The translations under genes were made by a program, and so were the position numbers. From an uncultured delta proteobacterium (GTDB lineage Bacteria; Desulfobacterota; Binatia; JACPRU01), in contig CAWBOU010000047.1 of assembly GCA_963790365.1 (NCBI GenBank), positions 71,429-135,428 on the forward strand: a stretch of DNA of 64,000 nucleotides. Reading direction: 5' to 3'. This document shows positions 21,077-36,075 of the stretch, one piece after another. Every line of letters starts with the position of its first letter. The first letter of the stretch is position 1. Below the pieces are notes generated by a model. The model was not told where the DNA came from. It ran no database searches and worked only from the letters and a program-made list of their open reading frames with translations.

Positions 21077-21433
21077 CTACCAGCCGCGGCGATGATCGTA
21101 CCGCCAGTCGAGGCGATCGCCGCGACGGTCGAGACGCTCATCGATGCGGTCACCGCGCCGATCGTACCACTCCTCGATCCGATCGCCCCTCTCGTCGAGG
21201 TAGCGAGCGCGCCGATAGTCGCCACGCGCCGCGGCACGTTCCGAGAGCCGATCGTAGTGATCCTCGATGCGATCGCCGCGCCGGTCGAGGCGCGCGTCGA
21301 TGCGATCGCCACGACGGTCCCAGCGGTGCTCGACGCGGTCGCCGCGGTCGCGGCAGAATTCGTCGGCCTGCGCCGCGCCCGCCGTCAGGAGAAAAGCCAA
21401 GCTTCCGGTTGCCAACAGGATTCGCGTCTTCAT
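21077..21433 (-). CDS. small secreted protein made of DRRGDRI(D/E) repeats
   Basis: ATG 21433: MKTRILLATGSLAFLLTAGAAQA signal, then six RGD-containing repeats (RDRGDRVE, DRRGDRID x3, DRRGDRIE, ERGDRIE, DRRGDRLD). Confidence 0.65.
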   Translation of the reverse strand: MKTRILLATGSLAFLLTAGAAQADEFCRDRGDRVEHRWDRRGDRIDARLDRRGDRIEDHYDRLSERAAARGDYRRARYLDERGDRIEEWYDRRGDRIDERLDRRGDRLDWRYDHRRGW

Positions 21434-21560
21434 GCCCGATAGACCGCGCTCGCGCCGAAACGGTTCACGCGAGCCGAATGCCGAGCGGCCGCAACATCGT
21501 CTCATTGGTGCGGTCCGATGCAGCGCGTCGCTCGGTGAGACGATCGGAAGCAGCGTCCCC

Positions 21561-22103
21561 TCAGGGGAGTGACTGGCTGGTCGACGGAATCGACCGCTCG
21601 CCACGATCGGTGAGGATCCGTCCGCTCGCCACGCGAACCGTCGGACGCTCGCTCGTGTCGGCGTCGACCGCGCAGCTCCTCACGGACAGCGTGAACGGTT
21701 GCTGGCTGCGCGGCGGGACGACGCCCGCGAAGGGGAACTCACGCGACTGACACGACGGCGGCTGGCCGGCGCCGCCGGCAGTGAAGGGAAAGTTCGTTTC
21801 GTAGGAAAGCGCCGTCCCCTGACGGACCTGCAGCGGCTCATCGCAAGGATTCCCGACCGATGCGGTCACGACGAAGTCGACGTGCTCGATGTCGGAGTCG
21901 CGGGAGACGGTCGCGCGCCGGATCGCGACCTGCGCGTCGACCGTGAAGCCGGCGCAGACCGGCGCGCCCTGCGGGAGCGCTCGCGCCGGCGGCTTGTCGC
22001 TCCGAAAGTGAGGCTGCGCGAGCGCGAGCTCGGCGATCCCGACGAGCGTGACGACGAGCGGCGCCCTCACGGCGCCGGGGATTCGCTGAACGACGGCACG
22101 CAT
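21561..22103 (-). CDS. secreted hypothetical protein (last gene of the 34.4-21.6 kb operon)
   Basis: N-terminus MRAVVQRIPGAVRAPLVVTLVGIAELALAQP (signal-like), four Cys, no family recognised. Alternative GTG start at 22070. Confidence 0.6.
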   Translation of the reverse strand: MRAVVQRIPGAVRAPLVVTLVGIAELALAQPHFRSDKPPARALPQGAPVCAGFTVDAQVAIRRATVSRDSDIEHVDFVVTASVGNPCDEPLQVRQGTALSYETNFPFTAGGAGQPPSCQSREFPFAGVVPPRSQQPFTLSVRSCAVDADTSERPTVRVASGRILTDRGERSIPSTSQSLP

Positions 22104-23719
22104 CCCGACAGGTCCGAGCTACAGACCTCGCCGACCGGGCAGCAGCAACACGTCTGCCCGCAGTTCTCCGCGGTCTCGTCGGGGCAGCCGCCGGTCGCCG
22201 CGCAGCAGCCGGCCTCGCTGTTGCAGACGGCCGCCTGCTCGTCGGCTCCGTTCGGGCAATCCGACTGCGTGTTGCAAACGAGGTTTCTCGCGATGCAGGT
22301 TCCCTCGCCGCACTCGAACTGGTCGTTCGGGCAGTTGCCCTCGCCCGGCACGTCCCCGCCGCCGTCGCCGCCGCCACTGCTCGCCGCGATCCCGCCCGCG
22401 ACCGCGCCGGCAACGACCGCCACGCCGGCGATCACCGCGGTGGTCGTGCTGACGCCGATTCCACCACCCGCCGTCGCGGCCGTTCCCGTGGCGGCGACCG
22501 CGCTCTGTGCGGACGGCGCCGCGCCTTCGACGGCGGCGACAATCCCGGCCGTAGAAAGGAAAATCAGCGGCAGCAAGGCAAGCTCGCGGCGCGCGAGCTC
22601 GAAGTCCGGATCCTCGCGGAGCGCCTGCTCGAGCTCGCGTCGCGCGCCCTCGTAGTCGCCGCGATCCTTGGCGTCGAGCCCGTTCGAGAACGCGATCATC
22701 GCCGGCATGCTCTTCGTCTGCTGCTCTTTCACTTCCGCGATGACCTGCGAATCGAGCGGCCGCACGACGACGGGCGCCGCCACGGGCCGCCGCGGCGCGG
22801 GCGACGGAGCCGCGGACGGCTGCGTCACCCAGGCCGGCACCTCCTCCTTCGGCTCCGCCGGCTTCGGTTCGGCGCGCTCCAGCGCGGCCGGCTTCTCGCC
22901 GTAACCGAGATCGGCGAGGATCCGCAGCGCGAGCGCTTTCTCGAGCTCGAAGAAATCGTCGATTCCCCCGCTCGCTTCCTGCGTGCCGAGAATCGCGGCC
23001 GTGCCGCTCTCCGCGACGACCGAGTCGAGGCGCAGCTCGCTCTTCGACGGATCCACGTAGCTGCCGGTCGTCACTTTGCCGGCGCCGAGCAGCTTGCCGA
23101 CCTTCGGCGCCGTGCGCTCGTCGACGAGGCCGCTCTGTCCGACCTTCATCTCCTGGAGCATCGCCTGCAGGCGATCGCGCTCGACGACGCGCAGCTCTTT
23201 CACCTTGGAGACGTCGTCGATGAGGAGCGCGGTGAGGCCCTTCTGCAGCGGCGTCAGCTCCGCGGAGCCGAGGTTGCGGTAGTACGTGATCGCCACGGTG
23301 CGTGGATCGCCGGGCCCGAGCCGCTGCTCCTTGGCGATCTGCTCGCGCGCGAGCTGCTCGTTCGCCTCGCGGATGAGCAGCGTGAGATGGCGCCGCACGT
23401 CCTCGGGAAGCTCTTGTTCCCGCTCTTCCGGAGTCGACGGCGCGAGCTTCGTGTAGGTGTCCCAGGCGGCAATCGCGTCGCTCGTGCGTCCGAGCCGCAG
23501 ATGGGCGAGACCGAGGTAGAGCGCGACCGGGCTCGACTTCGGCGCGAGCGCGCGGGCCTGCCCGAGCACGCGGGCGGCCTCTTCGTAGTTGCCCGCCTTG
23601 TACGCGTCGATGCCGGTCTCGATCGCGCCCGCGGCGTTCGACGGCGACGCGGCATGGAGCGCGGGCCCGAAGGCGATTCCCAGTGCGAGCCAAACGGCCA
23701 AGGCCTGTCGCGAGCGCAT
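22067..23719 (-). CDS. TPR + CsgG/LpoB-like domain protein with Gly/Ala-rich hydrophobic segment, C-terminal LDL-receptor class A module and Cys-rich tail
   Basis: ATG 23719 overlaps the upstream TGA. Signal [23 protein letters not shown]; TPR (YKAGNYEEAARVL..ALYLGLAHLRLGR); VAITYYRNLG..LRVVERDRLQAMLQEMKVGQSGLVD..GKLLGAGKVTTGSY; CPNDQFECGEGTCIARNLVCNTQSDCPNGADEQAAVC. Confidence 0.85.
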   Translation of the reverse strand: MRSRQALAVWLALGIAFGPALHAASPSNAAGAIETGIDAYKAGNYEEAARVLGQARALAPKSSPVALYLGLAHLRLGRTSDAIAAWDTYTKLAPSTPEEREQELPEDVRRHLTLLIREANEQLAREQIAKEQRLGPGDPRTVAITYYRNLGSAELTPLQKGLTALLIDDVSKVKELRVVERDRLQAMLQEMKVGQSGLVDERTAPKVGKLLGAGKVTTGSYVDPSKSELRLDSVVAESGTAAILGTQEASGGIDDFFELEKALALRILADLGYGEKPAALERAEPKPAEPKEEVPAWVTQPSAAPSPAPRRPVAAPVVVRPLDSQVIAEVKEQQTKSMPAMIAFSNGLDAKDRGDYEGARRELEQALREDPDFELARRELALLPLIFLSTAGIVAAVEGAAPSAQSAVAATGTAATAGGGIGVSTTTAVIAGVAVVAGAVAGGIAASSGGGDGGGDVPGEGNCPNDQFECGEGTCIARNLVCNTQSDCPNGADEQAAVCNSEAGCCAATGGCPDETAENCGQTCCCCPVGEVCSSDLSGCVPSFSESPAP

Positions 23720-25725
23720 CACTCCACCCCTTCCGGAATCGTGACGGTGCCGAGCACGAGCGGGAGCCCGGCGAACGTGAACGACCCGTTCGGCCCGGCC
23801 GCGGTCACCGCGGTCAACCGCTGCGTCGAAACCGGCCGCGTCGGTACCGCCGTATCGTCGTCGTCCCCACAGCTCGCCTGAAGCGCCGCTGCGGCGAGCA
23901 GCATCGCGAGCACGAGCGCGCGCTTTCGCCGCGACGGCGCCGCGGCGGCGAGGAAGACGATCCCGATCACATCGAGCCAGCCCGGGTACCGCGCGGGCGT
24001 CAGACCGGCGAGGACCACCCGCGGGCGGCCGGCGAAGAATTCCGGCGTGCCCACGAGACCGACCGTCAGCTCGAACGTCGCGGTTCCGCCGGGCTCGAGC
24101 ACGAGCGGATCGACGAAGCAGAACTCGCTCGGGCGGGCAGGCACGGCTTTGGCGCGCCGGTTGAACGCGCCGGAAGCACCGACGATGATCGCGGTATCGA
24201 AGAACTCCGGCCGTCCGAAATCGATCGCGGCGCACGAGACCCCGACCGCGACGCTCGACCGGTTGTGGAGATCGAAGCGCCCGGCGACGACGGTCTCGTC
24301 CTCCGAGCCGAGGGCACGCACCGGCGCCTCGGTCGTGGCATCGCTGTCGGGATCGGGCGTGGGGCTCGGGCCCTGAGTCGGGGTCGAGGTCGGGCCGAAC
24401 GGCGGCGTCGCGGTCGGGCTCGGGCCGGGCGTGATCGGCGGCCCGCTCGTCGGCGTCGACGTCACGGTCGGTGTCGGCGTGGGCGATGGTCCGAAGGTCG
24501 GCGTCGGCGACGGTCCGAAGGTCGGCGTCGGGGTCGGCAGGGAGAGCGGATTGTCGAACGCGAGCACGCGATTGTACTCGTTGTCCGCGACGTAGACGTT
24601 CCCCAACGAGTCGATGGCGACTCCGGTCGGGCCGCAGAGCGCGTCCGCGCTCGGGCTCGCGCAATCCCCGGTGTTGAAGCTGCCGTTCTGGCCGAACACG
24701 AAGTCCGCGGTGGTGTCGATGGTGCCCGGATCGAGGTAGACGAGGACGCGGTTGTTGCCGAAATCGGCGGCGAAGAGATTGCCCGCCGCGTCGACCCCCA
24801 AGCTCGAAGGGTCGCAGAGTCGATCCGCCGTCGGACCCCCGTCCTCGTTGCACGCGCCGTCCACGAACGTGCCCTGCCCGATCGGGAACGACGGCGAGCT
24901 GCTAGCGAGCGGGTCGGCGAACTTGAGGATCCGGCTGTTGCCCGCATCCGCGATGAACAACTCGCCGAGCGGGTCGAGCACGACCCCGCCGGAGGCGCAG
25001 AGGACGTCGGGCCCGAGCGGCCCACCTTGGTTGCACAGGTTCGTCGCGAAGCTCCCACTCTGACCGAAGACCCGATCCGCCAACGCATCCCCGGCGATCG
25101 GCGCGTCGTATTCGAGCACGCGGTTGTTCCCCGCATCCTTCACGTAGAGGTTCCCCGCGCTGTCGAGCGCGAGGGACACCGGGAAACACAAGCTCCCGGC
25201 ATCGATTCCGTTGGTGTTGCAAGAGGTCGTCGCGAAGCTTCCGCCTTGCCCGAACACCCGGTCCGCAACCCCGCCGGACGTGAACGGGCTGTCGTACTCG
25301 AGCACCCGGTTGTTGAACGCGTCCGCTACGAACAGATTCCCGGCGCCGTCGACGGCGACGCCGATGGGATTACAGAGAGTGGACGCGCTCGGACCCGATG
25401 CCTGGTTGCAGTCCACGGCATCCGCGGTCGGCTGCCCGATGATCAGGTCGGGCAACGCGCCGTTCGTGAACGTGGTCGCGTTCGCCCAACCGAGCACGCG
25501 GTTATTGTTGGAGTCGACGACGTAGAGGCGGTTCGACGAGTCCACCGCCACCGCCGCGGGCGCGCTGAGCCCGCCTCCGTCAGGCGGGTTCGAATCGGCC
25601 GAAACGAAGTCGGTCTGGCCGAGGACGCGATCCGCGGTCGTGTCGCCCGGCGCCGCTCGGCCGGTGACCGGCAGGAGAGCAAGCACCAGGATCGCGAGAC
25701 AAGCGCTGGATCGGCGCTCATTCAT
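23719..25725 (-). CDS. NHL-repeat beta-propeller protein with Pro/Thr-rich linker and C-terminal domain
   Basis: ATG 25725: signal [24 protein letters not shown]. Six or more repeats of the type G(V/L)A(V/L)D..GNL(Y/F)VAD..NNRVL.(Y/F)D. PT-linker [30 protein letters not shown]. Confidence 0.85.
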
Positions 25726-26959
25726 GACGCAGAGCCTCGATGGGATAGATCGCGGACGCTCGTCGTGCGGGATGAAACCCGAAGACGAGCCCGAACGTGA
25801 TGGAGATGATCGAAGTCCATAACATCGCCGACGCGGACACGTAAATCGGGAAACTCGCGAACGCACGGAGCGCGAGCGCCGTGACGAGCCCGAAGAACGT
25901 GCCTGCGATACCCGCGCCGAGCGCGAGCGCGGCCGATTCCGCGAGAAACTGGAGCTGCACGTCGCGTGCGCTCGCGCCGACTGCCCGGCGGACACCGATC
26001 TCGGCCGTGCGCTCGGTGACCGTCGCGAACATGACGTTCGAGATCCCGATGCCGCCGACGAAGAGCGCGAGCGCGGCGATGCCCATCAATGCGAGCTCGA
26101 GCGTCGCGCGCGCTTGCCGCCCGCGCTCGAGGAGCTCGATCGGCGCGACGACCTCGTACGCGCCGCGCCCTCGGGACGAGCGGTCGAGGACGCTTCGCAC
26201 GAGCGTCGCCGCCGCGGGCACGTCGGTCGTGCGCTCGAGGTCGAGCGCGATCTCGGTGAGCGGCCAGCGCTGCTGCGTCGTGCCTGCCGGGGCGAGCAAT
26301 TCGATCGGCACGTAGACGTCGCGATTCACGTCGCGCGCGCGCACCACCGCCTTCTCCGCACGAAGCTCGGCGCGGTCGGCGAGCACGCCCACCACGCGGA
26401 GATGCATCGCGCCCGCCTGCAGCCGCCGTCCGATCGGGTCGGCGAGGCCGAAGAGCTCGCGCGCGACGCCGGCGCCGAGCACGCAGACGGCATGTCGCCG
26501 GCGTCCGTCCTCGGGGGCGAGATAACGCCCGGAGGCGAGCCCGAGCCGAAACGTCGCGTACGACTCCGCCGTCGTGCCGACGATGCGCGCGTCCGCGCGG
26601 CGGCCGCCGGCGAAGACTTGCGCTCGCCGCTCGTCGCTCGGCGCGATCGTCGCGAGGCTCGGAATCGCGCTCGCGAGACGGGACGCGTCGCCGAGGGTCA
26701 GGGGCACACCCCCGGCAGACGCCTCCGCACCGGCCGCACGCACGAAGATCGACGTCGCACCCGCCTCTTCCACCTGGCGGACGACTTCCTGCCGCGCGCC
26801 TTCGCCGATCGCGGCGATGACGATGACGGTCGCGATGCCGACCGAGATGCCGACCGCGCTCGCCGCCGCCCTTCCGCGATGGGCGCGAAGGCCCTGCCAC
26901 GCGAGAACCGCGAGCCGGCGCCAGGGGATCCCCGTCCGCTCAGCCGTCGAGGCGACCAT
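25718..26959 (-). CDS. ABC transporter permease, FtsX/MacB/DevC type
   Basis: 413 aa: N-terminal TM, large periplasmic domain, and C-terminal FtsX-like helices ([27 protein letters not shown]). Confidence 0.85.
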
Positions 26960-27611
26960 CTTCGAGCTCGAGCACGCGCGTCGCGAAAGCCGCGACCGCG
27001 GGGTTGTGCGTGACGACGACGACGCTCGTGCCCGAGGCGTGGAGGCCGCGGAACACTTCCATGACCTCCGCCCCGGTCCGCGCGTCGAGGTTGCCGGTCG
27101 GCTCGTCGGCGAGAAGCAGCGCCGGCTCGTTCACCACCGCGCGTGCAATCGCCGCGCGCTGGCATTCACCTCCCGAGAGCTCGGACGGCCGGTGGCCGGC
27201 TCGATGCGCGAGACCGACCGCTTCGACCGCGCGGAGCGCACGCCGACGCGCCTCCGCGAGCGACGCGTCCGAGTAAAGGAGCGGTACCTCCACGTTCTCG
27301 AGGACGGACAATCGCGGGATCAGGTGGAATCGCTGGAAGACGAACCCGATCTCCGCGTTCCGGAGCGCGGAGACGCGCACGTCGTCGAGCGCCGCGACGT
27401 CGTCCCCGCGGAACCGCACGCAGCCGGTCGTCGATCGATCGAGGCAGCCGAGCAGATGGAGCAGCGTCGACTTGCCGGCGCCCGAAGGTCCCGTGATCGC
27501 GAGGAACTCACCCTCGGCGACGTCGAGGGACACGTCGTTCAGCACTCGCACCGAGCGCACGCCGGCGCCGTACGTCTTCGACACGTTCGCGAGCGACGCG
27601 AGCGGGGTCAT
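26940..27611 (-). CDS. ABC transporter ATP-binding protein (MacB/LolD/DevA type)
   Basis: ATG 27611 (ATGA overlap). Walker A GPSGAGKST, signature LSGGECQR, Walker B LLLADEPTGNLD. Confidence 0.9.
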   Translation of the reverse strand: MTPLASLANVSKTYGAGVRSVRVLNDVSLDVAEGEFLAITGPSGAGKSTLLHLLGCLDRSTTGCVRFRGDDVAALDDVRVSALRNAEIGFVFQRFHLIPRLSVLENVEVPLLYSDASLAEARRRALRAVEAVGLAHRAGHRPSELSGGECQRAAIARAVVNEPALLLADEPTGNLDARTGAEVMEVFRGLHASGTSVVVVTHNPAVAAFATRVLELEDGRLDG

Positions 27612-29053
27612 GGTTTCGCCGTCCGCGGTATGAGGCTCACCTCGTCGCCCTCTTCGAGGCCGGCGACGACCGCGACGAAGTCGTCGTTGCTCTCCGCGAC
27701 CTGCACCTCGCGATCGACGAACGTGCCGCCCGACTTGACCGCGCACAGTCGCCGCCCGTCGCGCTCGAAGATCGCTTCGATCGGCACGAGCATCGCGTTC
27801 GCCGCCCGGCCGAGCGCGATCGCGACTTCCGCGGTCATCCCGGGCCGGAGCCGCGGGTCACTCCCGTCGAGCCGCACGCGGACCTCGAAGTGCTTGTCTT
27901 CGCGAGCACCGGCCCGGTCCGTGGCGAGGTTGCCGACGAAGTCGACGACGCCCGCGAGCCGGAGATCGGGGAACGCGTCGAGCGTGATCTCGGCGCGTTG
28001 CCCGGCGGCGAGGCGGTGGACGTCGAACTCGCGAATCGCGGTCTCGACCCCCATCTCCGAGGTGTCCGGGATCGTCATGATCGGCTGGCCCTGCCACACG
28101 GAATCGCCGATCTGAATCTTGCGGTACTCCGAGCCCATCGGGATCGCGTCGTAGACGAGGAATCCGTCCGTCGGCGCGAGGACCTCGAGCCGGCGGACGT
28201 CCGCTTCGGAGCGCGCGAGATCGGCACGCGCGGCCTCGAGCGCCATTTCCGCCTTCGCGGCGAGCGCTTCCTGCCGCACGCGCTCGTGCGTCGCGCTTTC
28301 CGTCAGGCGGGAGACTTCCTGCTTCGCGCGTTCGAGCGCGGCGCGCGAGCGCTCGATCTCGGCCGGCTGGCGGTACTTGAGCAGGTTCTCGTGCTGCGCC
28401 GCCGCGAGCGCTCGCGAGCGCTGGGCCTCCGACAAGCGCGAGTGCGCCTCCTCGAACTCCTTCCGAGTGACGAAGCCCTGCTTCAGGAACTCGTCCGCGT
28501 CGGCGGCCGCCTGCGAAGCCTGGAGGAGCTGCTCGTCCGCTTGATCGAGGCGCGCCTTCGCTTCGCGCACGGTGAGCGGCGCACTGCCCTCCTCGAGCGT
28601 GCGGAGGTCGATCTCCGCGAGCCGAGCACGCATCTCCGCGTCCTGGATCGCCTGGGCGGATTTCCCCTGGAGGAGCGCCGAGTCCGCGCGCGCCTGCGCG
28701 AGGCTCGCCTCGGCTTCCTTCACCGCGCGCGAGAACTTCGTCACTTCCTCCGCGAAAGGCGCCGCGTCGAACTGCACGAGGAGGTCGCCCTTGCGGACGA
28801 ACGTGCCCTCCTGCGCGAGACGGATCACCTTCGCGCGGTTGCTCTGGATGTCGGACGCGATCGTCACCGAGCGCGGCGCGACGAGCGTGCCGCGCTCGAC
28901 GATGCGGCTCTCGAGGGGGCCGCGACGAACACGGGCGGTAGGCTCTGCGACCGAGACGCGCCCGCCACTGCCGACGCGACCGCCGAACACGAGGGTCGCC
29001 CCGATGAGCCCTACGGCCGCCCAGGCGAGCGTTCTCTTTCCCCCGTGATCCAT
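27608..29053 (-). CDS. HlyD/MacA/DevB-type periplasmic adaptor
   Basis: 481 aa: N-terminal TM, long coiled-coil centre, barrel/lipoyl halves (GDLLVQFD .. APTDGFLVY .. GMTAEVAI). Confidence 0.85.
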   Translation of the reverse strand: MDHGGKRTLAWAAVGLIGATLVFGGRVGSGGRVSVAEPTARVRRGPLESRIVERGTLVAPRSVTIASDIQSNRAKVIRLAQEGTFVRKGDLLVQFDAAPFAEEVTKFSRAVKEAEASLAQARADSALLQGKSAQAIQDAEMRARLAEIDLRTLEEGSAPLTVREAKARLDQADEQLLQASQAAADADEFLKQGFVTRKEFEEAHSRLSEAQRSRALAAAQHENLLKYRQPAEIERSRAALERAKQEVSRLTESATHERVRQEALAAKAEMALEAARADLARSEADVRRLEVLAPTDGFLVYDAIPMGSEYRKIQIGDSVWQGQPIMTIPDTSEMGVETAIREFDVHRLAAGQRAEITLDAFPDLRLAGVVDFVGNLATDRAGAREDKHFEVRVRLDGSDPRLRPGMTAEVAIALGRAANAMLVPIEAIFERDGRRLCAVKSGGTFVDREVQVAESNDDFVAVVAGLEEGDEVSLIPRTAKP

Positions 29054-29054
29054 C

Positions 29055-30464
29055 TCAGGAACAGACCGAGCCGAGCGGGTCGTCTCCGACGAGCGTCCGC
29101 AAGAGCTCCTCGAGGCGACCCGAGCTGCGCCGTACCCGGAGCGAGGCGAGAATCCGCTCGATCCGCAGCGCAGCCTCGTCGCGCTGCGCCTTGGCGAGCG
29201 CGTCCTCCGCCTCGAGGACGTCGAGCAGGCTCGCGTACCCGCGATCGAATCGGAGGTTCGCGAGCTCCACGTTGGCCGAAGACGCCTGCACGTTTCTCTC
29301 CTGCACGGCGATCCGGCGCTCGATCGTGGCGAGACGACGCACCGCCTGTCGCACTTCGAGCGTCACGCGCTGCTGGATCTGCGCGGCTTCGCGCTTGCGC
29401 GTCGCGAGCTCGAGGCGTGCCTGCTCGGCTTGGGCGCGCCCGACTCGCCAGTCGAGCGGATTCGTGCCGGACACGAGGAAGCGAACGCCCGACTCGTCGA
29501 GCGAGGTGCTCTGCTCGAACGTCGGCCCGACGCCGACGAGCGCGAAGTTCACTCCGACGCGGAGGTCCGGGTAGATGTTTCGCTGCGCCACGCGCGCGCG
29601 AAGCTCGGCCTCCGCCGCCTGGTCGATCGCCTCGGCGATCTCCGCGCGCCGCTCGAGCGCCGCGGCGATGAGCGTTTCTTCGCCTTCCTCGACCTGCACG
29701 ACGAGCGGCTCCGGCACGATCGCGAGCGGCTCGCCCGGCGCGCGCCCGAGGAGCACGTCGAGCTCGTCGCGGGCCGACTCGGCGGACTCGCGGGCGTCGA
29801 GGAGATCGTTCTCCGCAGCGGCCTCCTGCCCCTGCGCGCGGAAGACCTCCATGCGCGTCGCGAGCGCCTTCGCGAGACGCGCGTCGGCGACGCGCGCGTG
29901 ATGCTGCGCGCGCTCGAGCTGGCGCTCGAGGATCGCGATCTCGGAGTCGAGACCGACGATGCGATAGAACGCCTCCGCGACGTCCATCGCGACCTGCTCG
30001 GCGGTCAGTCGGAGCTGCCGCTCCGCCGAGCCGACGCGTCGCGAGGCCTCCACGACCCGCGCGGTGTTCGTCAGCGGGCCGAAGTCGCGGAACAACGCCT
30101 GCGAGAGCGTCACCCCGGAGAACGAGCGATGGAAATCGTCCTCCGTCGAGGCGGTTCCGGCGCCGAGCTCGACGATCGTGCCGGTCGAGAACTTCTTGTT
30201 CACGCTGACGGCGCTCGACTGTGACGTCTCGGTATCGGAGCCGAGCCCGCTCGTCGCGAGCGGAACGAGATGCACGGCGAATTCCGCGTTCGCGACGTCG
30301 ATGCCGTAGCGAGCCGAGCGCACGGAGTCGCAGCCGTCGTGGATCCGCCGATTCGATTGCAGCGCCGTGCGGAGCGCGTCGGTCAGCGCAATCGGCGTGG
30401 GCTCGGCGGCACAGAGCTCGGCGAAGGTGACCGTCGCGGCAAGCACGAGAGCTCGATTCTTCAT
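29055..30464 (-). CDS. TolC-family outer-membrane channel
   Basis: 469 aa with a signal peptide and a duplicated coiled-coil/beta architecture (LTDALRTALQSN.., LLDVLEAEDALAKAQRDE). Confidence 0.85.
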   Translation of the reverse strand: MKNRALVLAATVTFAELCAAEPTPIALTDALRTALQSNRRIHDGCDSVRSARYGIDVANAEFAVHLVPLATSGLGSDTETSQSSAVSVNKKFSTGTIVELGAGTASTEDDFHRSFSGVTLSQALFRDFGPLTNTARVVEASRRVGSAERQLRLTAEQVAMDVAEAFYRIVGLDSEIAILERQLERAQHHARVADARLAKALATRMEVFRAQGQEAAAENDLLDARESAESARDELDVLLGRAPGEPLAIVPEPLVVQVEEGEETLIAAALERRAEIAEAIDQAAEAELRARVAQRNIYPDLRVGVNFALVGVGPTFEQSTSLDESGVRFLVSGTNPLDWRVGRAQAEQARLELATRKREAAQIQQRVTLEVRQAVRRLATIERRIAVQERNVQASSANVELANLRFDRGYASLLDVLEAEDALAKAQRDEAALRIERILASLRVRRSSGRLEELLRTLVGDDPLGSVCS

Positions 30465-31174
30465 GATGACGTCTCGAGAAGCTTCTTCAGGCGCTCCTCG
30501 GCCTCCACGTCGTTCGCGTTCAGCTCGAGCGCCTTCTTGTAGCCTTCGATCGCCGCGTCCGTCTTGCCGGCCTTCTCGGCGGCGAGCGCGGCGTAGTAGT
30601 GCTCCGCCGCGCGGAGCGATTTGTTGTTCGCCACTCCGGCGCCGCTCGCGCGCTTCGCGACCGCGAGGCCGAGACCGCGTACGAGCTGGTCGGAGAGCTT
30701 GCCGGCGACGGTCCGCGGCGACCCGGGCGAGCCGCGCTCCGTCACCGAACGGAGCACCACGCCGCTCTCGACGTCGACGATCCGCGCATCGACGCTGAGC
30801 GAGCCCGCGATCGCCATGAAGCCGCCGAAGATCATCGTCTGCGCACCCAGGATCTTACCCAAACGAATTTTCGTCTCGTCCGCGGCGAGGTCGGAGCTCC
30901 CGAGCTTTTGCTCCGCGAGGACGTTCGCGAGCTTCTGCCGTTCGACCACGACGAGCTGCTTCGATTCCACGAGCCGCGTGGTGATCGCGTCCGGCAGCCA
31001 CTCGCGGAGGAAGTCCAGCCGCTTCCGGCCCTCGATGGAGTTGTTGTCGAACGGAATCACGGCGACGGTCTGGCGCCGCGTGGCCACCTTCACCTTGGCC
31101 TTCGCTTCGGCGGCGAGCGCCTCGCCGCCCGCGAGAGCGATCGCCGTCCCGAGCACCAGGATGCCGAGCTTCAT
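30461..31174 (-). CDS. CsgG/LpoB-like domain + TPR protein
   Basis: ATG 31174 (ATGA overlap). Signal MKLGILVLGTAIALAGGEALA; VAVIPFDNNS..LVVVERQKLANVLAEQKLGSSDL..LGKILGAQTMIFGGF..DARIVDVESG; C-terminal TPR (AEHYYAALAAEKAGKTDAAIEGYKKALELN). Confidence 0.8.
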   Translation of the reverse strand: MKLGILVLGTAIALAGGEALAAEAKAKVKVATRRQTVAVIPFDNNSIEGRKRLDFLREWLPDAITTRLVESKQLVVVERQKLANVLAEQKLGSSDLAADETKIRLGKILGAQTMIFGGFMAIAGSLSVDARIVDVESGVVLRSVTERGSPGSPRTVAGKLSDQLVRGLGLAVAKRASGAGVANNKSLRAAEHYYAALAAEKAGKTDAAIEGYKKALELNANDVEAEERLKKLLETSS

Positions 31175-33084
31175 TCTTTCGACTCGAGCAGGCGCTGACC
31201 CTTCGCGAACGAGCTCCCGGAGACGCCCTTGGCCACGGCGAAGCCGTCCTCGACCGAGGTGAGCTCGAGCTTGCCGATCGTTTTCTTCCTCGTGCCCACG
31301 ACTTTCCCGTTCACCTCGACCGGCACTTCGTCGCCGATCACGTTGAAGCGCTGCCCGGCTTTCGCGCCGTGCTTCTTGCCGATGCCGACGACGATCTCTT
31401 CGCCTTCGACCGAGGCGATCGTGCCCTTGAGCGGATACTCGCCCCGCAGCTTTTCTTCGATCGTCGTGGCGACCTTCTCGGCGAACGTGCCGATCTCTGC
31501 GGGATCCGCGAGCGTCTCCTGCACCGTCGAGCGGACCGCCGTCGTTTCGGTATCGACCAACCGGAGCTGCAGGCGGCTCTGGCCGCCCGCCGGCTGGAAA
31601 CCGCCGAGACCGACGACGGACGCCGCGAAGAGCTTGCCGAGCTTCAATTGCGTTGCCGGATCCGCGAGCTCCGAGGAGCCGAGCTTCAGCTCCTGGAGGA
31701 GCTTGTCGAGGGTCTCGCGCTCGACGAGCGTGACTCGGCCCGATTTCTCGAACCCCTGCGTGAGGCCGATCAGGAACGCATCGTCGAGCCCGTCGCGCGC
31801 GAGCGGCCCGAGCTCCATCTTCAGATCGACGAGCGAGATGACGAGCTTCCGCGGCTCCCACTCGTCCGCGGGCTTCGCCGTCGCGGCGCCGCTCTTGTAG
31901 GCCTTGGCGAGGTCGTCGACGAGCTTGTCGGTGAATTTCTGCCGCTCGAGATCGAGCTTCTCGCGCTCGGTCCGCTCGATCTTCGTGAGGAGAGCGGCGA
32001 CGAGCTCGTCGTCGGGCGCGAGCGCCTTGGCCGCGGTGAGCGTCTTCTTCGCCTCGGCGGTCTTGCCGGCCTTCTCGAGCGCGGCTCCCTGATTGCTCCG
32101 CGCCGCGACGAGGAACGGCTCCTTCTCGATCGCCTGGTCGTACGTGCGGATCGCCTCTTCGGGCTCGGTCTCGCGGGTGACCAACGCGAGATTGTTGAGC
32201 GCCATCGCCGACTGCCAGCCGAACTGCGCTTGTTTCTGTCCGGCTTCCTCGAACGAGGCCTTCGCGAGCTCGAGCTTCCCGCCGCGAGCGGCGATCTCAC
32301 CGCGGACGATCGCCGCCGGCGCGCTGTCGGCGCCCGCCTTCTTCGCCTGCGCCTCGGCTTCATCGAGGTTGCCCTTCCGCAGCGCGACCGCCGCGAGCCC
32401 CTCGGCCGCGACCTTTCCGCCCGTGCCTTCGAGCTTGCCGAGCGCGCGGAACGCCTTCTCCGCTTCGGCGAGGTTGCCTTTCTCCAGCATCGCGTAGGCG
32501 GCGCCCGCGCGCGCCTCGACGCTGTTCGGGTCCGCCATCAGCGCATCGCTGAACACGTCGGCGGCGAGCTGCGGGTTGCCGCGCGCGAACTGCTTCTCGC
32601 CGACGGAGATCAGCACCTTCTGCGAGGCGAGCCCGCCGCCGCGCACGACGTCGCCGATGATGCCGTCCGGCGAGACGACGTAGGTGAGCGGCACTCCATC
32701 GCGGGCGCCGTACGTCGAGAACGTCTCGCCCTTCGTGTCCGCGCACACCGGGTACCGCAGCGAGTGGGCGTTCACGAACTCGACCAGCTCCTTCGGCGGA
32801 TCGCCGGCCACCGACACGACCGCGAGGCCGTTATCGCCATGCTTGGTCGCGATCGTGCCGAGCGTGACGGCGAGATTCCGCGACGGCTCCGAGCCGAGCG
32901 ACATGAACGAGACGATCGCGATCGGCGACTCGTGGAGCGACTCGAGCGAGATCTCCTTGCCGGTCACCGTGGTCAGGCGGAACGGCGGTGCGGGCTTGCC
33001 GACCTCGAGGTCCGCGGCCATGGATGCCACGGCGTAGAAGAGGAAACTGGGAAGGAGTGAAAGGAGGCGGGAAGCATTCGTCAT
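31171..33084 (-). CDS. thioredoxin-fold (TlpA/redoxin-like, Cys-less) + TPR + CsgG/LpoB-like domain protein
   Basis: ATG 33084 (ATGA overlap with the kinase stop). GKPAPPFRL..IAIVSFMSLGSEPSRNL (SEPS where redoxins have CxxC); TPR block; VISLVDLK..VTLVERETLDKLLQELKLGSSEL..LGKLFAASVVGLGGF. Confidence 0.8.
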   Translation of the reverse strand: MTNASRLLSLLPSFLFYAVASMAADLEVGKPAPPFRLTTVTGKEISLESLHESPIAIVSFMSLGSEPSRNLAVTLGTIATKHGDNGLAVVSVAGDPPKELVEFVNAHSLRYPVCADTKGETFSTYGARDGVPLTYVVSPDGIIGDVVRGGGLASQKVLISVGEKQFARGNPQLAADVFSDALMADPNSVEARAGAAYAMLEKGNLAEAEKAFRALGKLEGTGGKVAAEGLAAVALRKGNLDEAEAQAKKAGADSAPAAIVRGEIAARGGKLELAKASFEEAGQKQAQFGWQSAMALNNLALVTRETEPEEAIRTYDQAIEKEPFLVAARSNQGAALEKAGKTAEAKKTLTAAKALAPDDELVAALLTKIERTEREKLDLERQKFTDKLVDDLAKAYKSGAATAKPADEWEPRKLVISLVDLKMELGPLARDGLDDAFLIGLTQGFEKSGRVTLVERETLDKLLQELKLGSSELADPATQLKLGKLFAASVVGLGGFQPAGGQSRLQLRLVDTETTAVRSTVQETLADPAEIGTFAEKVATTIEEKLRGEYPLKGTIASVEGEEIVVGIGKKHGAKAGQRFNVIGDEVPVEVNGKVVGTRKKTIGKLELTSVEDGFAVAKGVSGSSFAKGQRLLESKE

Positions 33085-34391
33085 CGAGTCTCCTCGGCGA
33101 CCAGCGCGAGCTCGATCTGTACGCGCTGATTCGGTTTCACCACGGCGGTCTGACGCGCGGTGTAGTAACCTGCCTTGCGTAGCTCGACCTCGTAACGCCC
33201 GGGCGGAACTTCGAGCGTGAACGGCGTGCGGCCGACCATCTTGCCGTCGACGTAGACGTCCGCACCGTCAGGGTCGGTGATGGATTCGACGAAGCCGCGC
33301 TCGACGACCGCCGGCGGCGCCGGCGGTGGTTGCGGAGGCGCCGTGTCCGGGGCACGCGCGGGCTTCGCCGCGAAGCGAAGGTAGAGCGCGGCCCCGAGGG
33401 CGAGCACGAGCGCGAGCGCGACCACACTGCCGACGAGCCCACCCCGCCCGCGCGCCGGCAGGGCCGCGGGCGCCGGCTTCCCGGGCGCGGCTGTCGACTG
33501 GAGCAGCTCCGTCGCGTCCGCGGCGGGCGTCGCGACCGTCTGTTGCGCGGCTTGCGGCGCCGGTTGCCTCGCCGCGATCCGCTCGAACGCTTCGCGCGCA
33601 GCGCCCGCGTCGGCGGGACGGCGCTCGCGGTCCTTCTCGAGGAGGCTCATCACGAGGTCGCGGAGATCCTGCGGGACCGCAGGAGGGAGCGGCGGCGGCG
33701 CCTCGTTCAGGTGCTTGAACATCATCGCTTCGAGGGTGCCGGGAAACGGCGGGGCACCCGCGAGCATCTCGTAGGTCATCGCGCCGAGCGAATAGAGATC
33801 GGCGCGGCCGTCGATCTCCTCGCCGCGCCACTGCTCCGGTGGCATGTACCGCGGCGTACCGACGACGAAGCCCGTGCTCGTGAGGTTCGCGCCGTCGTTC
33901 GCGAGCTTGGCGATGCCGAAGTCCGCGACCTTGACGTGGTCACCGCCCGCCGTCTTGATCACGAAGACGTTCGGCGGCTTGAGATCGCGGTGCACGATTC
34001 CGAGCGGCGGCTTATGCGCGTCCGCGAGCGCATCGCAGATCTGTTGGGCGATTCGCGCCGCGCGTTGCGGCGGCAGCGGCGCTTCTCGCTTCAGCAGCTC
34101 ACCGAGCGTCTCGCCGCGAATCAGCTCCATCGCGAAGTAGAGCGCGCCCTCCGGGGTTCGCCCCGCGTCATAGACGGTGACGGCGTGAGGATTCGACAGG
34201 CTCGCCGTGACGCGGACCTCACGGAGGAAGCGTCGGGCGAACACTTCGTTCGACGCATGCGCGGCGTGCACGGTCTTCAGGGCCACTTCGCGAAGCGCCT
34301 CTCCGTCGGGACCGAGCTGCTCGGCGCGGTAGACGGTGCCCATCCCGCCCTCGCCGAGCGTCCCCAGAATGCGGTACTTGTCGACGATCAA
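33081..34391 (-). CDS. Ser/Thr protein kinase with TM segment and C-terminal PEGA domain
   Basis: TTG 34391: [50 protein letters not shown]; [22 protein letters not shown]; PEGA-like [34 protein letters not shown]. Confidence 0.85.
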
Positions 34392-34474
34392 TCGGGATTC
34401 TCTTTCGACGCTACAACACCGGTTGCGCCGGTCGCAAGATCGGCAAATGTCTCTACCGAGGAGGTTCCGCGACG

Positions 34475-36075
34475 ATGAACGACCGAGAGCTCTGGGATCG
34501 CTACCGCCGTCATCTTTGTGTCGTCGACAGTCTCGGGCTCGAGCTCGATCCGTCGCGGATGCGCTTCGGCGACGACTTCTTCGACCGCATGGCGCAACCG
34601 ATGGCGCAGGCGTTCGACGAGATGGAGGCGCTCGAGCGCGGCGCGATCGCGAACCCCGACGAGAATCGCATGGTCGGGCACTACTGGCTTCGCGCGCCCG
34701 AGCTGGCGCCGACGCCGGAGCATCACTCGGGCGATCCGAGAACACGCTGGCGGCGATCCACGGCTTCGCCGCGGACGTCCACGCCGGGCGCATCCGCCCG
34801 GAGAAGGCCGACCGCTTCCGCAGGATCCTCGTGGTCGGCATCGGCGGCTCGGCGCTCGGTCCGCAGCTCGTGGCCGATGCGCTCGGCGGGCGCGCAGGAC
34901 GCGATGCGGCCGTCGTTCCTCGACAACACCGATCCGGACGGCATCGACCGCGTGCTCGGCGGCCTCGGCGACGAGCTCGCGGCGACGCTCACCGTCGTCA
35001 TCTAGCAAGTCCGGCGGCACCAAGGAAACGCGCAACGGCATGCTCGAGGCCGCGCGCCGCGTATCCGCGCGGGGGCTCACGTTCGCCCGGCACGCGGTGG
35101 CGGTGACCGGCGAGGGCAGCGAGCTCGACCGCCACGCGGTCGCGGAGAAGCTGGCTCGCGCCGCTTCCCGATGTGGGACTGGGTCGGCGGCCGCACGTCC
35201 GAGCTTTCCGCGGTCGGTCTCCTGCCGGCGCGCGCTGCAGGGGATCGACATCGACGCGCTCCTCGCCGGGCGCGCGGGACATGGACGTCGCGACGCGGGT
35301 CGGCGACGTCAAGCGGAACCCCGCGGCGCTGCTCGCGCTCATGTGGCATCACGCCGGGGACGGCCGAGGCAAGAAGGACATGGTGATCCTGCCCTACAAG
35401 GACCGCTTGCTCCTCATGCAGCAAGTACCTCCAGCAGCTCGTGATGGAGTCGCTCGGCAAGGAGCTCGATCGCAAGGGCCAGGTCGTGAACCAGGGCATC
35501 GCCGTCTACGGCAACAAGGGCTCGACCGATCAGCACGCCTACGTGCAGCAGCTCCGCGACGGCGTGAACAACTTCTTCGTCACGTTCATTGAGGTGCTGA
35601 ACGATCGCGCAGGCGACATCGATGGCCGTCGATCCGGGCGTGACGAGCGGCGACTACCTGCTCGGCTTCCTGCTCGGCACGCGACGCGCGCTCTTCGAGA
35701 AGGACCGCGAGTCGATCACGATCACGGTGCCCGAGGTGAGCCCGCGCACGCTCGGCGCGCTGATCGCGCTCTACGAGCGCGCGGTCGGCTTCTACGCGAT
35801 CGCTCGTCGACATCAACGCCTATCACCAGCCCGGCGTCGAGGCGGGCAAGAAGGCGGCGACGGCCGTGCTCGAGCTGCAGGGACGCGTGCTCGCCCACCT
35901 GAAGGGGGGCGGGTCCGGCACGGCGGAAGCGATCGCCGCGGCCGTCGGCGCGCCGGAGGCGGCCGAGACGATCCTGCACGTCCTTCGACACCTCGCCGCC
36001 AACGGCCGCGGCGTGGAGGCGTCGGTCGCCAAGTCCCCGTTCGAACAGAGCTTTCGCCTCGCCCAGGCTCGTTAG
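34475..36075 (+). pseudogene. pgi: glucose-6-phosphate isomerase in about 12 frame segments, or assembly indels
   Basis: Pieces in successive frames: [27 protein letters not shown] | ITRAIRE | [24 protein letters not shown] | [16 protein letters not shown] | SKSGGTKET.. | [22 protein letters not shown] | [12 protein letters not shown] | ..[18 protein letters not shown] | [31 protein letters not shown] | [15 protein letters not shown] | [15 protein letters not shown]. Confidence 0.85.

Follow-up and report, generated by a model that had tools for sequence, protein, structure and literature searches.

The low-density lipoprotein (LDL) receptor class A module (LDLa) is familiar from textbooks as a building block of animal receptors; of its relatives in bacteria there are, to our knowledge, no studies, and a literature search on bacterial LDLa found nothing relevant. 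A stretch of 64,000 nucleotides from an uncultured delta proteobacterium of the class Binatia (assembly GCA_963790365.1, contig CAWBOU010000047.1, positions 71,429 to 135,428 of the forward strand; hereafter the window) raises the question of whether such a module is present in a bacterial envelope protein and, if so, where it came from and what it might do there. The candidate module lies near the C-terminus of a protein of 550 amino acids (aa), encoded by an open reading frame (ORF) at 22067–23719 (stop codon included). This ORF and all other features described here are on the minus strand of the window.

The module occupies aa 463–499 (22223–22333), for which CPNDQFECGEGTCIARNLVCNTQSDCPNGADEQAAVC is the exact minus-strand translation; a plus-strand reading of the same positions gave an unrelated peptide and was rejected. 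The six Cys residues (463, 470, 475, 482, 488 and 499) have the canonical spacing. The Pfam LDLa profile (PF00057, gathering cut-off 24.1 bits) matched with 36.1 bits (E = 7.7e-9) in the whole protein, 41.9 bits (E = 1.1e-10) when the 37 residues were searched alone and 40.7 bits in a whole-genome scan, and the match covered model positions 2–35 of 37 (3–35 for the 37 residues alone). The PROSITE-type LDLRA_1 pattern, running from Cys3 to Cys6, had a single match in the six-frame translation of the window (22223–22297) and none in 200 codon-shuffled windows. Matches of a phmmer search against PDB sequences were solely to LDLa modules of LDLR, VLDLR, LRP1/2/8 and haemoglobin linkers. A model built with AlphaFold2 (AF2) on a 32-sequence alignment had a predicted local distance difference test score (pLDDT) of ~81 over the module, an earlier run on four sequences having been poor (pLDDT 56). 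Foldseek superimposed this model on solved LDLa modules over 32–43 columns with a root-mean-square deviation (rmsd) of 0.5–1.5 Å and a probability of 1.00, including 8yw0_E (0.5 Å), 1ajj (0.7 Å), 8ua4_R (0.8 Å) and 2kri_B (1.3 Å), for which TM-scores normalized to the target were 0.81–0.84. Profile, Cys spacing and predicted fold all mark aa 463–499 as a genuine six-Cys LDLa (complement-type) module. An earlier note, made from the letters of the sequence, had described such a module with an LDLRA_1 match from its third Cys and had proposed a profile search and a structural model as checks; the module, the pattern match, a profile score above the cut-off and an LDLa fold in the predicted model were all found. 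The near-full profile match and the 0.5–1.5 Å overlays indicate homology rather than the convergence that the note had also entertained, which is unlikely.

Immediately downstream of the module is a second Cys-rich element, here called the 'CCCC knot' tail (aa 500–543; 22091–22222), which has the form CC-x4-GCPxE-x4-C-x3-CCCC-x5-C-x6-C and is recognized by a tail profile. A spacer of five residues (NSEAG) separates Cys6 of the module from the first Cys of the tail. The 51 residues that follow the module contain 10 Cys (505, 506, 512, 520, 524–527, 533 and 540), and not the 11 counted previously, while the CCCC run at 524–527 that had been reported is real; Cys makes up ~25 % of the tail and the whole protein has 16. 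A word-indexed search limited to the C-terminal region recovered only the query and one homologue (P0004) and, being insensitive, was replaced by an exhaustive search of 1.84 billion representatives with a profile built from four tails. This identified 77 cluster representatives at E≤1e-3, with the window protein as the best match (76.5 bits). The ten tail Cys are invariant in alignment A5, the family motif is CC-x4-GCPxE-x4-C-x3-CCCC-x5-C-x6-8-C, and the GCPGET...CCCC motif is near-invariant across phyla and carriers. No Pfam family was found over the tail in any of 79 carriers and no NCBIfam model matched the tail of the window protein. Judged by conservation and by these profile scans, the tail is a conserved module described by neither Pfam nor NCBIfam.

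The association between the two elements is frequent. LDLa modules in the 79 carriers were counted by a Pfam scan and then by a refined classification. PF00057 was detected directly before the tail in 48 of 79 carriers, rising to 62 when variants were included, always with a spacing of 5–6 residues to the tail CC. The variants are of two kinds: 21 are short, with C3-x4-C4, and at least eight have four Cys, C1 and C3 both being absent. The tail is nearly always at the extreme C-terminus, with a median of four residues past its last Cys, and the carriers range from 51 to 922 aa with unrelated N-terminal parts. They include CarboxypepD_reg lipoproteins, small N-anchored proteins, proteins with PD40, Big_2 or DUF4214 domains and one double-TIR protein; all source names that were looked up read 'hypothetical protein'. 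LDLa plus tail, at ~85 aa, is by these comparisons a rare, self-contained and portable C-terminal domain pair of bacteria, placed on many unrelated exported or membrane proteins. It is this composite cassette and its unnamed tail that are new here, since bacterial LDLa as such is already labelled by Pfam-based pipelines.

Several individual carriers have features of their own. In a metagenome protein of 475 aa (P0127), two TIR_2 domains and one transmembrane helix are joined through a Pro/Thr linker to LDLa and the CCCC tail; the cassette, as the sole part beyond the transmembrane helix, has the look of a sensor ectodomain coupled to a TIR effector. Eight loci from Sulfuricella, Sulfuricellaceae, Rhodocyclaceae, Desulfobulbaceae, Syntrophobacterales and other metagenome-assembled genomes (MAGs) encode N-anchored proteins of ~215–450 aa that end in short-form LDLa plus tail (L018, L020, L024, L026, L031, L032, L033 and L041). 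Directly upstream in all eight is a conserved gene for a secreted partner, which in L020 is a beta-propeller of the PD40 type and in L024 matches nothing in Pfam. A third tail subtype occurs in Phycisphaerae and Myxococcota MAGs (L025, with two adjacent genes, L036, L042, L044 and L015); it reads CC..TNGCPSEEL..CPG.CCCC..GA.C...G.W.CG[FI] and follows 'CGDGxC...GE...CPxDCP' repeats instead of LDLa. In P0130 (310 aa) an unrelated N-terminal domain is followed by a GISTTAAVLGGVVAAGAVAGG-type hydrophobic segment and, after a Gly/Ser linker, by the tail without LDLa; hydrophobic segment, linker and Cys head may be mobile as a unit. C-terminal lipidation of a CaaX-like kind, considered for tails with 'GCCASP' endings, was rejected: the proteins are exported and the endings heterogeneous.

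The distribution of the cassette bears on its origin. In the genomes sampled, PF00057 was present in 2 of 201 from the phylum, 6 of 301 from the class and none of 14 controls, in keeping with the rarity in bacteria that the earlier note had taken as established. Among the 301 class genomes the tail was found once in the genome of the window and twice in G205, a member of the same family, and not in the others. A degenerate DNA pattern for the tail, scanned over 185,579 species genomes, gave 30 stretches in ~27 species genomes, all of them MAGs, belonging to Binatota, Polyangiaceae, Kofleriaceae, other Myxococcota, Bdellovibrionota, Phycisphaerae, Desulfobulbaceae, Syntrophobacterales, Sulfuricella, Sulfuricellaceae, Rhodocyclaceae, Thiocystis and Methylomirabilota. 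One pattern match (L021) was rejected as a poly-Cys artefact, and one from Acidobacteriota (L034) failed the protein regular expression, its tail being unconfirmed at the protein level. The tail carriers thus listed span at least eight bacterial phyla and are free-living environmental MAGs. The patchy spread and the variety of carriers point to domain shuffling and lateral spread among bacteria.

LDLa is overwhelmingly metazoan and sporadic in bacteria, and from these facts alone it might be proposed that the module was captured recently from an animal or another eukaryote, or that it came to resemble LDLa by convergence. Both are highly improbable. The module of the window is 39–67 % identical to other cassette modules (alignment A4) and 30–39 % identical to solved animal modules, and the G+C content of the cassette (0.696) is like that of the gene (0.711); these two results argue against recent capture from an animal, as do the wide phylum range and free-living sources of its relatives. 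The cassette modules also carry a signature as a clade, made up of an Asn that follows Cys4 in 56 of 62, the short C3-x4-C4 variants and the fused tail. The D-E pair is present in 61 of 62. Convergence is opposed by the near-whole profile match and by overlays that range from sub-Ångström to 1.5 Å. The module appears, from signature and identity, to belong to a bacterial clade and not to be recently derived from eukaryotes. The suggestion that it was 'acquired' therefore holds insofar as domains are shuffled between bacteria, and not otherwise, given the signature of this clade and a G+C content that is not anomalous. Four members of the class (G370, G308, G404 and G409) encode a second, separate kind of LDLa protein (L004–L007 and L009). 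These are small and lipoprotein-like, with two terminal four-Cys 'CDG..DC.DGSDE' modules and no CCCC tail. They share with the window protein export, a bacterial origin, modules with a putative calcium cage and the sole label 'hypothetical', and differ in that Asp is kept after C4, C1 and C3 are often absent and the modules are in tandem.

Residues of the module were compared with those of animal LDLa (LDLR, VLDLR, LRP2/megalin and annelid haemoglobin linkers), with which it shares the six-Cys spacing, a Phe/Ile core and the D-x-...-DE residues of the predicted calcium cage. In LDLa a Ca2+ ion is held by the acidic side chains of four residues (C4+1, C5-1 and the D-E pair) and by two backbone carbonyls; in LR5 (1AJJ) the residues concerned are W193, D196, G198, D200, D206 and E207. 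Of the predicted cage in the window protein, Asp487 (before Cys5), Asp493 and Glu494 are in place, and position C4+1 has Asn483 for Asp. The PROSITE pattern permits Asn there ([DNH]), and the carbonyl oxygen of Asn483 could serve as a Ca2+ ligand. Animal LDLR modules dock a lysine of the ligand through a Trp (C4-2) and three acidic residues (C4+1, C5-1 and C5+2). The corresponding residues are Leu480, Asn483, Asp487 and Asn490, so that the lysine-docking site is not kept, and these positions vary within the bacterial clade. With Leu at the Trp position and Asn at two acidic docking positions, the capture of a ligand in the manner of LDLR, as might be read into the earlier suggestion of a ligand- or partner-capture module, is doubtful. 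The window protein differs further from its animal counterparts in having a single module and not an array, in the fusion of that module, across five residues, to a 10-Cys tail unrelated to it, and in its bacterial setting in a protein of the periplasm or envelope.

The pattern of Cys residues across the family suggests that they are paired. Canonical LDLa disulfides join C1 to C3, C2 to C5 and C4 to C6. At least eight relatives lack both C1 and C3, a joint loss that is predicted by the C1-C3 disulfide, and proteins with the tail alone lack a Cys at the C6 position. Of the complete tails, 36 contain 10 Cys and 42 contain 12, and none has an odd number; the additional two are always present or absent together, with 0 of 78 mixed. 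Even counts and the strict co-occurrence of the extra pair favour paired disulfides over a thiolate metal cluster. Cystine ladders of stacked hairpins of the granulin/epithelin type likewise have 10–12 Cys in ~40–55 residues, CC pairs and an even count, and the tail resembles them in these respects, its Cys being probably all disulfide-bonded. The spacing is different (here CC-x5-C-x7-C-x3-CCCC-x5-C(C)-x6-C(C)), and no Pfam granulin match was found in the window protein at E≤1.

A metal-binding role deserves consideration for a sequence of this composition. The tail, possibly with the acidic residues of LDLa, might form a thiolate metal site like those of metallothioneins or bufferins and buffer or pass on Cu or Zn in the periplasm. 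Enzymes of methylotrophy and alkane degradation are often copper-dependent. The Cys content of the tail, with its CCCC run, would fit such a site; the heads of some relatives of the carrier protein match PF11617, and one of these proteins is named 'MopE-related'. The Binatota are described as methylotrophs and alkane degraders (PMC8262859). This explanation is nevertheless unlikely: the Cys number is always even, with an extra pair that strictly co-occurs, the tail has neither His nor Met ligands, and the Pfam matches of the neighbouring genes include none for copper handling or MNIO-type maturation adjoining the gene. In addition, the tail is fused to LDLa, an obligately disulfide-bonded module, and exported to an oxidizing compartment.

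The remainder of the carrier protein indicates where the cassette is displayed. A signal peptide (aa 1–24; 23648–23719) has a hydropathy peak of 1.73, no lipobox Cys and a presumed cleavage site before an alanine. It is followed by N-terminal tetratricopeptide repeats (TPR; aa ~25–98; 23426–23647), matched by Pfam TPR_2, TPR_19 and TPR_16 at aa 34–97, and by an alpha/beta domain like those of CsgG, LpoB and TolB-N (aa 152–220; 23060–23266; PF03783, 34.3 bits, cut-off 20.8). A C-terminal TPR (aa 332–383; 22571–22726; TPR_14, TPR_11 and TPR_Slam) leads into a first hydrophobic segment (aa 379–397; 22529–22585; ELALLPLIFLSTAGIVAAV; Kyte-Doolittle 19-residue mean 2.07). The second (aa 428–446; 22382–22438; AVIAGVAVVAGAVAGGIAA; mean 2.25) runs directly into a Gly-rich linker (aa 447–462; 22334–22381; SSGGGDGGGDVPGEGN), beyond which the cassette begins. 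Signal peptide and both hydrophobic segments are kept in homologues, which have poly-Gly at the same place as the linker. As the protein has a signal peptide, and as two hydrophobic segments and the Gly linker come before the cassette, the Cys-rich head is probably extracytoplasmic; the place of the cassette beyond the single transmembrane helix of P0127 points the same way. A cleaved signal peptide and a two-helix hairpin would place both scaffold and head outside the cytoplasm, which fits a disulfide-rich head, and the simplest placement that the topology suggests is the periplasm with an inner-membrane anchor. Of the earlier description as a cell-surface envelope protein, export to the envelope is upheld; for the surface, the topology suggests instead periplasmic display from the inner membrane.

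The alpha/beta domain and the envelope location are shared with CsgG/HfaB and with LpoB/TolB-N-like lipoproteins (PF03783 and PF13036), of which there are paralogues in the same operon. The scaffold lacks the lipobox and the channel-forming part of CsgG/HfaB: the signal peptide is without Cys, and since the PF03783 match is partial and covers only profile positions 30–97 of 210, the protein is not a CsgG secretion channel.

Comparison with homologues suggests that the head of this scaffold is exchangeable. The carrier matched an identical protein (P0003) and a homologue with 66 % identity (P0004), and its N-terminal core is common to ~70 homologues, the named ones being Candidatus Binatota or Binatia. 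Following the hydrophobic segment and Gly linker, these have alternative heads with DUF4215-type 'CGNG...' repeats, a MopE-like motif or ICK-like repeats, while other relatives have a beta-rich head without Cys (P0010) or no head. Apart from the window protein, LDLa plus tail was found on this scaffold only in P0004, P0005, P0006 and a second paralogue of G205. In the window protein the cassette thus stands in place of the other Cys-rich heads that relatives of this TPR/CsgG-like Binatia scaffold have.

On such a scaffold the cassette might be a rigid, protease-resistant cap or spacer that binds no ligand and stabilizes or orients the parts beneath it. The conserved residues of LDLa are those of the core and Ca cage (Phe, Gly, Ile/Val, Cys, Asn and Asp-Glu) and the ligand-contact positions vary, as would be expected of a cap. 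Its position as the sole extracytoplasmic part of the TIR membrane protein P0127 would be odd for a passive element, however, and the near-invariance of GCPGET...CCCC across phyla and carriers suggests a conserved interaction, so that a purely structural role is unlikely.

The gene lies within a string of tightly joined genes (21561–34841), all read from the minus strand, which encode, in order, a PEGA-domain Ser/Thr kinase, an AhpC/TSA-TPR-CsgG-like protein, a CsgG/LpoB-like protein, a TolC-like OEP and a HlyD-family adaptor, then a MacB-type ATPase and permease, an NHL-repeat protein, the LDLa protein and a secreted protein of 180 aa. The exporter genes (MacB-type ABC permease and ATPase, HlyD adaptor and TolC-like OEP) occupy 25718–30464 (Pfam MacB_PCD/FtsX, ABC_tran, HlyD_D23 and OEP). 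The ATG of the carrier at 23719 is preceded by the purine-rich GGAAGGGGTGGAG and overlaps by one nucleotide the stop codon of the upstream NHL-repeat gene (23719–25995; Pfam NHL). The C-terminal domain of the NHL-repeat protein (aa ~558–680) has BLAST matches in ORFs upstream of homologues (L016 and L049). The 180-aa protein (21561–22103) has no Pfam match and adjoins scaffold-family genes, with 52 % identity to an ORF downstream of P0009, a relative with a different head, and 31 % to an ORF upstream of P0027. These two proteins, the NHL-repeat protein through its C-terminal domain, accompany the scaffold more consistently than the exporter does, and further CsgG-like paralogues recur near its relatives. 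P0009 lies directly after the same OEP-adaptor-ABC-MacB genes (L013), and no such genes were found by P0006 (within 10 kb), P0041, P0038 or P0027. As far as these loci go, none of the recurring neighbours appears specific to the LDLa head, and no partner gene is common to all cassette carriers, the only one found being that of the small N-anchored subfamily.

The exporter genes and the C-terminal position of the cassette raise the possibility that it is a signal for sorting, secretion or attachment, for example one that is released at the Gly linker and exported by a MacAB-TolC-type system, or one that anchors its cargo. MacAB-TolC exports a small disulfide-rich peptide, the enterotoxin STII. 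MacB-type exporter genes occur in the same gene string here and by P0009. In proteins of very diverse kinds the cassette forms the extreme C-terminal end, in most cases after a flexible linker, and its motif shows strong conservation from phylum to phylum. Against a general sorting tag stands the low copy number, with one or two copies per genome in the class set where multi-substrate tags would have many cargoes. A hydrophobic helix with a basic tail is also lacking from the cassette, its carriers share no conserved partner gene, and exporter and cassette are found apart, P0009 having the exporter with another head and P0006 the cassette with no exporter within 10 kb. The low copy number and the absence of a hydrophobic stretch in the tail likewise set it apart from PEP-CTERM, MYXO-CTERM and the C-terminal domain (CTD) tags of type IX secretion, which mark many substrates in a genome and are built as a hydrophobic helix with a basic tail or as a CTD beta-sandwich. 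A sorting or secretion role is accordingly judged very unlikely.

Other observations were made in the surroundings of the gene. Two more CsgG/LpoB-like paralogues lie in the same gene string (31171–33084 and 30461–31861), one with an N-terminal AhpC/TSA fusion (thiol peroxidase or redoxin) and a FlgT_C-like end; a periplasmic redoxin so close to a protein with 16 Cys may have a bearing on how the latter folds. The operon is closely followed downstream (21077–21604) by a gene for a secreted protein of DRRGDRI(D/E)-type charged repeats with no Pfam match. Caspase-like Peptidase_C14 proteins, one fused to a CsgG-like domain, occur near scaffold-family genes in L048 (P0041) and L050 (P0027).

With these alternatives weighed, the explanation preferred for LDLa plus CCCC knot is that of a Ca2+-stabilized, disulfide-locked recognition head that forms a single portable cassette, and this is proposed with moderate confidence. 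The two hydrophobic segments would form a membrane hairpin, with scaffold and head facing the periplasm. Eight disulfides, three in LDLa and five in the tail, would lock the head, and the LDLa half would hold one Ca2+ ion. The result would be a compact and protease-resistant head for binding or recognizing some partner, by a mode other than the lysine docking of animal LDL receptors. Several points weigh against this proposal. The hairpin is predicted from hydropathy, and the loop between the segments has no positive charges that would fix its orientation. One of four predicted side-chain ligands of Ca2+ is Asn instead of Asp, and in place of the lysine-docking Trp, C4+1 Asp and C5+2 Asp the protein has Leu, Asn and Asn. 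The AF2 model of the tail has a pLDDT of 53–74 and Foldseek found no match for it in the PDB; because of this low confidence no claim is made for its fold. The neighbours of relatives also vary, the link to MacAB-TolC being seen in the window and L013 and not in L012, L048, L049 or L050.

A broader proposal is that bacteria have in the cassette a recognition head that acts outside the cytoplasm, portable between varied signalling and scaffold chassis and an ancient equivalent of the LDLa ectodomain of animals, and that the Binatia scaffold is a head-swapping receptor family. This is doubtful. The finding is of modest practical importance. It does show one bacterial LDLa clade to be half of a conserved two-part cassette and not a stray copy, and it provides a new domain for database curators to define. 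Being small, self-contained and present on very different carriers, the cassette is a tractable target for studies of structure and of the role of bacterial Ca cages. If the broader proposal is correct, among the chassis would be lipoproteins, the membrane protein with TIR domains and N-anchored proteins that have beta-propellers as partners. For the Binatia, the results point to an envelope scaffold family that exchanges Cys-rich heads, in which, on the same proposal, the LDLa-knot, DUF4215, MopE-like and ICK-like heads would set which ligand of the envelope or the environment is sensed or captured.

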